Part shown: piece after piece, positions 19,928-23,499 of the stretch
How the letters are laid out: every line of letters begins with the position of its first letter
Numbering within the stretch: the first letter of the stretch is position 1
NCBI GenBank assembly: GCA_965225855.1
Contig: CBDDCK010000005.1
Coordinates: 1,600,001 to 1,664,000 of the forward strand
Length of the DNA stretch: 64,000 bases
Reading direction: 5' to 3'
DNA from: Spirochaetia bacterium
GTDB lineage: Bacteria; Spirochaetota; Spirochaetia; SP-2023
Notes under the pieces: generated by a model
The model's input: the letters and a program-made list of their open reading frames with translations, nothing else
The model's database searches: none
Told to the model about the DNA's origin: nothing
Program-made: the position numbers and the translations under genes

Positions 19928-20424
19928 AGGGTCTCCTTATTATGAAAGTGTAATTTGGCAATATAAAATCTATAGTCAGTAGCAAAACTATCATAATTAG
20001 TAGATAAAGTATAGAGATTGAGCTTAATTGAAAGAGGACATGATAACTGAACGGGATAAGACGTGATAACTCGGGATTTTTTGGAACAAATGGGAAGGTA
20101 AAATTGGCTTACTTTCCAAAATAAAAAAGTAAAACCAAAATAAAAAAGTAAAAAATTTTCATTGCACGAGAAAAAGCCAGAATCCATTTTTAACACCAAA
20201 CCAGAGAAAAAACGCTCAAAACTTCAAAAAGCCAAAGCGGTGCCAGGATAACCAAACCATGCACCGCTTTTTTTATGCCTTTCGGCTGAATCCACAAATG
20301 GAACAAGTAAAAAATTTTTGTTTTTCGGCCTATGGGCCATTGTCGGCAGTAATTGGGCAACAATATGCTTTCAAAATATCATGGTAACGGGCCACGGTCT
20401 CAAAAAGCTAGTAAGGTTTCTGAA

Positions 20425-20467
20425 AAAAGCTAGTAAGGTTTTGACTGAAAACCTTACTAGCTTTTTT
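20425..20467. repeat. Long hairpin (about 19-20-bp stem, 5-nt loop) in the cassette left arm
   Basis: aaaaagctagtaaggtttt-gactg-aaaaccttactagcttttt, with an extra direct copy of the arm at about 20402-20419. Confidence 0.85.
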
Positions 20468-20894
20468 GATTGGCAACCTAGGGATTTTCCAATGAGACTG
20501 TGGCAGTCTCTAAAAAAATCGCAAAAAATTGTATTGTATTATTTTGCTAAAAACTGGGCTGTACTGCGATACAAAAAACTCAAATTCTTATACTTTCATA
20601 CGAAACGCAACGCAACACCCGGACTGCGTCTAGCGTATTACAAATTTTTACCCAAGGTATCTCAAGCAATCTCAAGGTATCTCAAATAATCTCAAGCCTT
20701 TTGATTGGCATGGATTTTTAACCACCTTACAACACTAACACACAAAAAAAGTGCCCAAAACATAAAAAAAGCACAAAAAAACTTGCAAAAAGCTTATATA
20801 GGCCTTGACGCAACACCCCCCCTAGCAAAATGGGGCACTGTACACTAGCCCGTATGGGTTGGCCAATCTTTATCCATTGTTGGAGGTATTGCTT

Positions 20895-22994
20895 ATGTAT
20901 AAGCACAAACTATTTTTATTGCCAGTAGCCTGGCTACTGGCCTTTATGGCCTTGGCCTGCGCACCACCCGATGACGATGATCGATCTTCTGGGCCGTCTG
21001 GGCCTGCAATCACCAGTGCAAGCTACGATGTTGGCACGGCGCTGTTAACCGTACAAGGTTCTAACTTAAGTCCTACAACTGCGACCCAAGCGCAAATCCA
21101 AACTATCAGGGTAGGAAGCCGAACAAATGGTGTAGCCTTAGATTCCTATACTGCAGATGACCCAGCCACTGGGCCAGATAGTAACGGTCTTGCAAAAGGT
21201 AAGTACCGTATTAAAAGCGATGGCACAAAGCTTTGGCTGAAACTTAAAGATGCCGATAAAGCTACTCTGAATGGCAAGCCCGGTATGAATAAGGATGGTC
21301 TAAAAAAAGGGTTGCTTAGCGTTAGCACTGGTGCTTGGGCGGGTTTAAATACAGCCAAAGACTTAACCGTTAGGAATATACCCGCAGCCGAAGAAGTCGA
21401 TGATCAATCGCGTAAGCAAACTGAAGACGAACAAGTCGAACAAACCGAAGAAGTCGAAGATAAGCAGTCTAAAGTATCCGATGACAATCAGCCATCTAAG
21501 CAAACTGAAGAAGCTGAACAAGACGAACAAGCTGAACAAGTCGAAGAGGAGTCGCCTAAAGCTGCAATTACCGGTGCAAGCTACCATGTTGGCACGGCGC
21601 TGTTAACCTTGCAAGGTTCTAACTTAAGTGCTACAACTGCGACCCAAGCCCAAATCCAAACCATTACGGTAGATGGCTTAGCCTTAAGTTCCTATACTGC
21701 AGATGCCACAGCCACTGGGGCAGATAGTCGCGGTCTTGCAAAAGGTAAGTACCGCCTGCATAGCGCTGGCACAGCGCTTTGGCTAAAACTTACCGATCAA
21801 CATAAAGCTACTCTGAATGGCAAAACAGGTATGGATAGCAATGGTCTAAAAGATGGGTTGCTCAGCGTTGGCACTGGTGCTTGGGCGGGTTTAAATACAG
21901 CCAAAGCCTTGGCCGTTAGTGGAAACCCCGCACCCGCAATTACCAGTGCAACTTACAATGTTGGCACGGCGCTGCTAACCGTACAAGGTACTGACTTAGG
22001 TAGTGCGACCCAAGCGCAAATCCAAACCATTACGGTAGATGGCGTAGCCTTAAGTTCCTATACTGCCACAGCCACTGGGGCAGATAGTCGCAGTCTTGTA
22101 AAAGGTAAGTACCGCATTAAAAACGATGGCACAGCGCTTTGGCTGAAACTTACCGATACCGATAAAGCTACTCTGAATGGCAAGACAGGTATGGATAGCA
22201 ATGGTCTAAAAGATGGGTTGCTTACTAGCACTGGTACTTGGGCGGGTTTAAATACAGCCAAAGCCTTGGCCGTTAGTGGACACCCACCCGCAATTACCAG
22301 TGCAAGCTACAATGTTGCTACAGGCGTGTTAGTGATTACAGGTACTAATTTACCGTCAACAGTGAATAGCTGGGACTTTAGCAAATTGAGGTTTGTCGCA
22401 GGTAATGGTGATAAGAGTGGACCATTATTCCAGCGAGCTTCAACTAAACACTCCGCCACAGGTTCTGCAGCAAGTGCAACAAGCTTAACGATTACTTTAG
22501 GGGGTAGTGAAAAAAGGAAAGCCGATAAGATACTGGTTAAGAATGGTGATAGTGATGATAATGGTGCATACAACCTGGAAGCAGCAGCAGGATTTGCAGG
22601 TGGTAGCGCAGCAGACACAGGCAATAACCCGATTACCGTTAGTGGCTACGTAAGCCAGATCAGCTCCGTACAATACAGTGATAATGGTAATATAGGTATA
22701 TTAGAGATTTATGGTAGCGGTTTACCGACAACAGTTGAAGAGTGGGACTTTAACAAATTGACGATTGTATCCGGTGATGGTAGTAATAGATACACATTAC
22801 CCCAGCACGAAACTGCAGGTGAAAACAGAGCCACAGGTCTTAGGGCAAGTAGAATCAGATTAATTATTACTTTAAGGGGTAGTGTAAAAGCGGAAGCCGA
22901 TAAGATACTGGTTAAGAATGGCAACCTTGAAGCAGCAACAGGATTTGTAACGGGTAGTCCAGCAGACCTAAAAAATGCTATAACGTTGTATTGA
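20895..22994 (+). CDS. Modular surface lipoprotein, paralogue 3 (A + linker + 2 A + 2 B)
   Basis: Same leader, lipobox and domain repertoire as the other copies. Confidence 0.85.
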   Translation: MYKHKLFLLPVAWLLAFMALACAPPDDDDRSSGPSGPAITSASYDVGTALLTVQGSNLSPTTATQAQIQTIRVGSRTNGVALDSYTADDPATGPDSNGLAKGKYRIKSDGTKLWLKLKDADKATLNGKPGMNKDGLKKGLLSVSTGAWAGLNTAKDLTVRNIPAAEEVDDQSRKQTEDEQVEQTEEVEDKQSKVSDDNQPSKQTEEAEQDEQAEQVEEESPKAAITGASYHVGTALLTLQGSNLSATTATQAQIQTITVDGLALSSYTADATATGADSRGLAKGKYRLHSAGTALWLKLTDQHKATLNGKTGMDSNGLKDGLLSVGTGAWAGLNTAKALAVSGNPAPAITSATYNVGTALLTVQGTDLGSATQAQIQTITVDGVALSSYTATATGADSRSLVKGKYRIKNDGTALWLKLTDTDKATLNGKTGMDSNGLKDGLLTSTGTWAGLNTAKALAVSGHPPAITSASYNVATGVLVITGTNLPSTVNSWDFSKLRFVAGNGDKSGPLFQRASTKHSATGSAASATSLTITLGGSEKRKADKILVKNGDSDDNGAYNLEAAAGFAGGSAADTGNNPITVSGYVSQISSVQYSDNGNIGILEIYGSGLPTTVEEWDFNKLTIVSGDGSNRYTLPQHETAGENRATGLRASRIRLIITLRGSVKAEADKILVKNGNLEAATGFVTGSPADLKNAITLY

Positions 22995-23067
22995 TAAGTA
23001 GGGTTTGGTTTAACCTTGCTTGCCCAATAGCTCTTAGAGCATAGGCTAAGTGAAAGCTAGCGGGCAG

Positions 23068-23111
23068 GCCAACCAAGTAAATGCGGTAAGCAATGCTTGG
23101 TTGGCTTTTTT
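23068..23111 (+). terminator. Intrinsic terminator after lipoprotein copy 3
   Basis: gccaaccaag...cttggttggc followed by tttttt. Confidence 0.78.
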
Positions 23112-23248
23112 GTTGGGCTATTAGGCTGTATCTTGTTGTTGCAACGCTTGCATTGGCCAATTGCAGCCTTGGTAAGTTTTTTTATCAAGGCTGCTTTTAT
23201 CAATTATAGCCTTGGTATAAAGTATTGTTCCGCATTGGTGCAATACAT

Positions 23249-23288
23249 CTTTCCGCCTTGGATCAAGGCCTTGATCCAAGGCGGAAAG
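23249..23288. repeat. Perfect 40-bp palindrome
   Basis: ctttccgccttggatcaagg|ccttgatccaaggcggaaag. Confidence 0.95.
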
Positions 23289-23499
23289 CTATATCATAGC
23301 AAGTCTAGAAAAATTTATTAAGGCTGCTTTTGCCAATTATAGCCATTCTGGAAAGTAGAAGAGTCGAGTTATCACGTCCGATGGCACAAAGTTATCACGT
23401 CCTGCATCAGCTTGGTGGCAAGGGGCTTTGACTTTTTAGTGGTTTGGGTTATATTTAACGGCAAATAAAAACCTTTTAAAACAACCAAAAGGAGAACAT

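Follow-up and report, generated by a model that had tools for sequence, protein, structure and literature searches.

Variable genes that lie between the ends of a mobile element, with no transposase inside, are known from Xanthomonas, where transcription activator-like effector (TALE) genes are carried by mobile insertion cassettes (MICs) that bear the ends of TnXax1, a Tn3-family element, and occur as complete, solo-ended and end-less copies, according to the portion of the account available (PMC4337579). An engineered counterpart is mini-Mu(LR), whose amplification by phage transposition proteins yields inversions and deletions as by-products in the accessible part of its description (PMC3145075). 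Among phages of the B3/BcepMu type, which include Leptospira prophages, a 6-bp repeat is described as the footprint of a B3/Tn552 transposase, and the available section of that source mentions mini-Mu solely as an engineered tool (PMC8705779). Our analysis concerns a 64-kb window (C5:1600001-1664000) of a Spirochaetia genome (assembly of 2.71 Mb in 5 contigs, 94% complete), in which a 3381-bp unit at positions 20029-23409 carries a predicted surface lipoprotein gene. The ends that this unit shares with a resident prophage, the 6-bp duplications that flank several units of its kind and the existence of empty paralogous sites make it likely that the left-right (L-R) lipoprotein unit is a natural mini-Mu, which would be moved in trans by the DDE transposase and the ATPase of that prophage. 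The unit works like an engineered mini-Mu and is classed as a mobile insertion cassette; natural passenger cassettes have already been described for insertion sequence (IS) and Tn3 ends.

A preliminary description of the window had proposed a 45-bp imperfect inverted repeat at the two borders, each copy made of an 8-bp terminal segment and two 12-bp sub-repeats 23 bp apart, with a lipoprotein as the sole cargo, and our analysis bears out all three points. The left end and the reverse complement of the right end agree at 33 of 45 positions; both consist of an 8-bp tip headed by TG and two 12-bp sites with a 23-bp spacing; and the single long open reading frame (ORF) inside the unit encodes a lipoprotein of 699 amino acids (aa). 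The 12-mer occurs seven times in the window, where 0.29 occurrences would be expected by chance. The same description had supposed that a non-autonomous cassette was served by a transposase encoded elsewhere, which is now supported both by target duplications at 5 of 17 complete units and by the presence of a DDE transposase gene inside the same ends.

The sole rve match in the genome is an ORF of 586 aa (C5:1273165-1274925) within a 36-kb prophage that is bounded by the same ends as the lipoprotein units, so that an rve/DDE transposase enclosed by matching ends, for which the preliminary description had proposed a search, does exist. The affinity to Tn7, IS21 or Tn5053 suggested there did not hold; judged by its sequence, the donor of the ends is a B3/Mu-like transposable prophage in the same genome. 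The prophage carries genes for a terminase, a Mu-type portal (PF06074), capsid, sheath and tape measure proteins, a repressor, GemA (PF06252), a Mor-like protein (phrog_532, a match scored on a minus-strand ORF) and a transposition ATPase (phrog_296); its repressor and transposase genes are internal, and both arms read on one strand. The transposase has an intact reading frame with D144, D238 and E274 conserved, is 29% identical to that of B3 (E 1e-63), and counts phages of Pseudomonas, Burkholderia and enterobacteria, including B3 and BcepMu, among the best 25 of its 69 phage relatives; PF09299 gave no match anywhere, controls included. Sequence common to the window unit and the prophage extends over about 260 bp at the left end (94.6% identity) and 73 bp at the right end (91.8%), and longer phage remnants stand at the ends of other units, with 680 bp at one left end and between 349 and 890 bp at right ends. 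When aligned without gaps from the tip, the left end of the unit matches the left end of phage B3 at 34 of 64 positions, a score reached by none of 20,000 shuffles, compared with 22 of 64 for the right end used as a control and 20 of 64 for one left end that a 1-bp deletion throws out of register. A related prophage in the congener G002, whose transposase matches at 55%, has an equal end plan at both ends. No extra copies of the G002 end motif (expansion) were found in the congeners G001-G003, and the viral contig collection yielded no relative of the prophage transposase. Because additional phage pieces stop at contig breaks, at the start of C3 and the end of C4, an intact copy of the prophage may be unassembled.

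Across the genome, 63 ends were identified, 31 left and 32 right: 57 of the 63 are attached to a lipoprotein gene in a fixed orientation, with left ends 396-1246 bp upstream and right ends downstream of the stop codon, and 17 pairs form complete units with one lipoprotein gene apiece. The family was catalogued by a motif count, which gave 114 matches with a combined coding share of 8.2% of the genome; removal of the 8 matches shorter than 400 aa left 106 genes (102 in a tblastn catalogue), of which 17 have both ends, 13 a left end only, 10 a right end only and 66 none. Perfect 6-bp target duplications flank 5 of the 17 complete units, each with a different hexamer, against an expectation of 0.02 when the target bias is retained (P 2.5e-11), and no perfect 5-bp duplication was present among the 17 left-right pairs. 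The 48 distinct flanks reveal a symmetric target preference, NYTARN. Several right ends, among them those at C5:48292 and C5:1452721, are shorter by one 23-bp unit, and right ends of this shortened kind still border two of the five units with a duplication.

Empty sites provide a further line of evidence. For the unit at C5:1449578-1452721, a paralogous repeat at C5:1441011 contains the target once, with about 12 bp of match on the left side. For the window unit, the flank that now stands beside the left end at C5:1592757 is joined across GCTTGG to the right flank of the unit in an empty paralogue near C5:1790130, and the original left flank of the unit probably lies 27 kb off after inversions. 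Two inversions between copies, predicted around C5:1590138-1623409, would account for this join, for the identical flank hexamers of the left end at 16622 and the right end at C5:1590138, and for a 1.5-kb inverted repeat (85%) formed by the two leaders that stand back to back around the host gene at 16631-19927. The left junctions at C5:1592757 and C1:5963 read GCTT+AAT before TG, the empty paralogue has GCTT+GG or GCTT+GAG, and GCTTAAT also flanks position 20029 of the window (20023-20028); the shared GCTTAAT suggests a copied flank, through conversion or capture of a donor flank. Synteny at five flank genes does not extend to G001-G003, which renders a comparison of empty sites with these congeners uninformative. 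Contigs from a second study (X4-X6) contain the lipoprotein family and host genes that are about 97% identical; among the matches listed, no piece spans 20029 or 23409.

A natural mini-Mu could have originated through a deletion that fused the phage ends to an existing lipoprotein locus. The transposase would bind the paired, putative 12-bp sites, cut after CA and insert the unit with a 6-bp stagger. Later, copies may have recombined with one another or jumped replicatively, with the result that the DNA between them was inverted, many duplications, that of the window unit included, were split and the ends were eroded, and recombination among the genes may have shuffled their domains, leading the cargo to diverge more rapidly than the ends. 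Genes with no end, 66 in all, would have lost their ends or spread by recombination. The phage enzyme probably copied such units round the chromosome and thereby probably helped to build a family of 106 variable, predicted surface proteins. Two observations touch on the origin. At C3:774-928, a phage right end is fused to a piece of the prophage repressor region, which could be a sign of self-insertion, one possible route to mini derivatives. In addition, a 46-bp host tandem repeat that lies upstream of several lipoprotein genes is also found inside the prophage (C5:1264372-1264473 and C5:1292605-1292855), where it interrupts a baseplate gene, one that the C4 copy has in full. This repeat could have been the means by which phage ends were joined to a lipoprotein gene.

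Compared with the TALE MICs, as far as the available text describes them, the lipoprotein cassettes are likewise multi-copy variable genes between the ends of an autonomous element, with no transposase inside and with duplications at some copies, whereas they differ in having transposable-phage rather than Tn3 ends, a 6-bp instead of a 5-bp duplication, asymmetric left and right ends, a lipoprotein cargo and 106 genes that make up about 8% of the genome (PMC4337579). Ends of an autonomous element around passengers, a duplication of the cognate length (5 of 17 units) and a cognate transposase in the genome, the features by which an MIC is recognised, are all present here. Like mini-Mu(LR) in the part of the report available, the lipoprotein unit consists of only phage ends around a passenger gene, but it is natural, has ends of the B3 and not the Mu type and would be mobilised by a resident prophage as helper (PMC3145075). 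TG...CA ends and a 6-bp repeat, both seen in the derived units, and a B3/Tn552-type transposase, an ATPase, GemA and a Mor-like gene, all in the resident prophage, are shared with the B3/BcepMu-type phages, and contractile-tail genes are shared between the resident prophage and the Leptospira prophages, to the extent that the accessible section covers them (PMC8705779). Unlike such phages, the lipoprotein unit has no phage gene; in the resident prophage, the left tip is damaged, a duplication is missing and a baseplate gene is interrupted. Tn552 has two 23-bp sites per end and generates a 6-bp duplication; the lipoprotein units share the 23-bp site period, the 6-bp duplication and a related transposase class with it, but their donor is a phage. 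Tn7-like elements, Tn5053 and phage Mu proper produce a 5-bp target duplication. As candidate sources, these were rejected on the 6-bp duplications and the lack of a perfect 5-bp one among the pairs, and IS21 and IS481, judged without family-specific models, on the position of the lone rve gene in a 36-kb phage that is not IS-sized.

No natural multi-copy cassette with transposable-phage ends was found in the literature searched, which mostly did not cover subscription journals, where much of the Mu work appears, and excluded supplements. If the natural mini-Mu is real, phages would have a new means of shaping host surfaces, here through a gene family of about 8% of the genome, and such cassettes would be predicted to be overlooked wherever prophage ends go unannotated. 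The compact B3-type end, with its 8-bp tip, two 12-bp sites and 6-bp NYTARN target, might also serve as a genetic tool for spirochaetes.

Several observations weigh against transposition by the phage enzyme. The prophage has an intact right end, but the first 11 bp of its left tip are missing and it has no flanking repeat. Twelve of the 17 complete units have no duplication, and these include the window unit (CTTAAT on the left, GCTTGG on the right), whose displaced left flank, GCTT+AAT, is an imperfect match to the GCTTGG of the empty site. As a set, the hexamer matches between loci are not significant (3 seen, 1.3 expected, P 0.14). The 66 genes with no end have ragged borders in host repeats. 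Nearest-neighbour genes are 75% alike at the median and 90% at most; with no gene pair above 90%, no recent jump is shown. In trees built from the N-terminal and from the C-terminal module (FastTree; the genes are mosaic and the trees weak), end status is distributed at random, and the trees give no separation between loss of ends and end-less spread. The preliminary description had stated that homology between copies stops at the ends, which fails elsewhere in the genome: the outer flank is repeated up to the junction at 18 of the 63 ends, and 7 of those 18 share the junction itself with another end. These seven, five left and two right, must have spread with their outer flank and without cleavage at the tip, so that homology past the ends, named beforehand as a sign against a mobile cassette, is partly present.

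Some of these observations favour a spread of the family mainly through gene conversion and ectopic recombination between repeats of the host, by which phage ends captured once or twice would mostly have been carried along passively. The end-less genes, the ends copied with their flank and the random end status all fit this account, as do the mosaic genes: along 20 windows of the cargo gene, 16 paralogues take turns as the best match, and for three windows in a row the sequence is identical to that of one paralogue. One unit (C5:402242-405702) has a direct repeat of about 232 bp on its flanks in place of 6 bp, the outcome to be expected if two insertions close to each other had recombined. Passive carriage fails, however, to give five different perfect 6-bp duplications, and it fails on the symmetric preference of the 48 flanks and on junctions placed exactly at TG and CA. 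As the main account of the family it is unlikely; for the end-less genes it is still a live account. Since 66 of 106 genes are end-less and 7 of 63 ends were copied with flank, transposition explains only part of the family, and recombination therefore shapes it at least as much.

A less probable alternative, to which we give little credence, is that whole prophages were inserted, which would have made the duplications, and that their interior was later swapped for the lipoprotein cassette by recombination within the end sequences. The segments shared with the prophage, up to about 260 bp on the left and 73 bp on the right, together with the longer phage remnants, would suit such a swap, but at a position 13 bp from the tip, in the first right-end site, where the five phage-type right ends differ, each of the five units with a duplication shows the cassette-type base, and two of these units have lost one whole site. 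An interior swap would thus need a crossover within 13 bp each time. It is very improbable that the ends came from a non-phage DDE element (IS21, IS481, Tn7-like or Tn5053) whose transposase was lost or is unassembled: the assembly, incomplete and in five contigs, leaves some room for a missing gene, but the ends bound a prophage both here and in G002, resemble the left end of B3, and the sole rve gene is the phage's own. That the 12-mer is merely a regulator site of lipoprotein promoters, as the preliminary description had allowed for, has a negligible chance and is refuted by the 6-bp duplications that flank ends; although most ends lie near lipoprotein genes, right ends stand 3' of the stop codon, left ends stand 396-1246 bp upstream and 66 genes have no end.

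All 106 lipoproteins have a lipobox cysteine at position 22 or 23. The structure model of the 699-aa cargo comprises five beta-sandwich domains and a disordered acidic linker (predicted local distance difference test, 74.9; predicted template modelling score, 0.46). Its structural matches are generic immunoglobulin-like folds, such as plexin (Z 6.4; root-mean-square deviation 6.5 over 170) and SbsC (Z 5.9; 3.0 over 87), with no structural relative at Z 8 or more. The lipoproteins may be exposed at the surface and act in adhesion. The cargo lipoprotein was not found in any of the three congeners (G001-G003) or in 200 of 200 other genomes of the class; 7 of its 92 database matches come from other records, its Atlas matches are hypothetical proteins, and a Pfam search gave weak matches with no stretch passing the threshold.

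A run of C residues lies between the predicted -35 and -10 boxes in 104 of the 106 genes, with a predicted spacing of 14 bp in 17 genes, 15 bp in 84, 16 bp in one and 17 bp in two, while the two genes without a match are divergent long paralogues with another promoter. This C-run may switch lipoprotein genes on. Against switching, the boxes are predicted, runs of 6-7 are short, and MutS and MutL motifs are present in the genome; homopolymer errors in the assembly could add to the length variation. Comparable systems in the available part of the literature are the tpr genes of Treponema, which are under poly-G control, and porA of Neisseria, with phase variation in the promoter spacer (PMC7864442). 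As in porA and tpr, a homopolymer run of differing length stands between the predicted boxes of surface-type genes, whereas here the C-run is spread over 104 lipoprotein paralogues and would be a putative switch (PMC7864442, in the part available). Promoter spacing across 100 paralogues offers a testable model of surface switching. A tentative and rather doubtful extension is that a domesticated prophage acts as a two-component gene amplifier for surface variation: locked by the loss of its left tip, it would supply transposase, phage-ended cassettes would scatter and reshuffle about 100 lipoprotein genes, and the C-run would keep almost all promoters off (14-15 bp in 101 of 106) and leave one to three, at 16-17 bp, expressed, giving antigenic variation without a dedicated expression site.

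The features of the window are collected in Table 1. The predicted promoter of the cargo gene is absent from the scanner list; the scanner requires spacers of 16-18 bp. The leader hairpin is a possible terminator that would shield the lipoprotein gene from read-through.

Table 1. Features of the window unit and of related loci in the window (window positions)
Feature	Position	Strand	Remark
Left end, TG tip (8 bp) and 12-bp sites 20037-20048 and 20060-20071	20029-20073	+	presumed transposase-binding sites
Phage-derived left segment	20029-20298	+	94.6% identity to prophage left-end positions 12-271
Hairpin in leader, A and T runs on either side	20423-20467	.	sequence reading; absent from scanner list
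Predicted promoter, TTGACG, 15-bp spacer with C7 (20816-20822), CAAAAT	20805-20831	+	consensus match alone
Cargo lipoprotein gene, 699 aa, lipobox ALAC, Cys22	20895-22994	+	ATG start; mosaic of paralogues
Terminator-like hairpin and T run, 3' of cargo gene	23068-23112	+	sequence reading
Second hairpin 3' of cargo gene	23163-23194		scanner match
Phage-derived right segment, including right end 23365-23409	23339-23409	-	91.8% identity to last 73 bp of prophage
GCTTGG, likely original target hexamer	23410-23415	+	paralogous empty site
Solo left end of second unit	16578-16622	-	second site with two mismatches
Paralogous lipoprotein gene, 653 aa, left end but no right end	13844-15805	-	
Solo right end of third unit	26052-26096	+	
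Paralogous lipoprotein gene, 595 aa, right end but no left tip	26331-28118	-	
Paralogous lipoprotein gene, 917 aa, no end	8201-10954	+	
Paralogous lipoprotein gene, 599 aa, no end	40620-42419	+	
Host gene between two back-to-back leaders	16631-19927	-	presumably alpha-mannosidase-like, from its motif

The second left end and the second right end noted in the preliminary description are both real, but they do not form a pair; each is the solo end of a partial unit of its own. The promoter of the gene at 13844-15805 has upstream of it a 10-bp tandem repeat (15931-15987) that varies among copies.

Other loci of the genome depart from the simple unit. At C5:1594979-1598895, a lipoprotein gene lies between two inward-facing right ends with no duplication. 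A 14-kb stretch (C5:1027022-1041147) is bordered by a left end and a phage-type right end whose flanks agree at 5 of 6 bases, and contains two lipoprotein genes, an IS1595 fragment, phage scraps and an operon read from its sequence as similar to one for an ATP-binding cassette (ABC) peptide or nickel transporter; it is a possible large composite unit. IS1595 copies are present in the genome, and the intact one has no repeated ends near lipoprotein genes. Two long divergent paralogues at C5:353763 (1279 aa) and C5:571748 (1017 aa), with no ends and another promoter, are candidates for the ancestral form. What reads as a gene similar to transfer-messenger RNA (C5:1293865-1294340) lies about 100 bp from the right end of the prophage. 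A clustered regularly interspaced short palindromic repeats (CRISPR) array at C5:896070-902500 has a 36-bp repeat, 56 spacers and an IS1595 gene near its leader end; none of the 56 spacers matches the prophage, and two match the genome perfectly (C4:45188 and C5:1987510). Within the window, positions 49356-59042 hold six tandem genes of about 500-520 aa, and both of the two that were scanned encode subtilase-family proteases.

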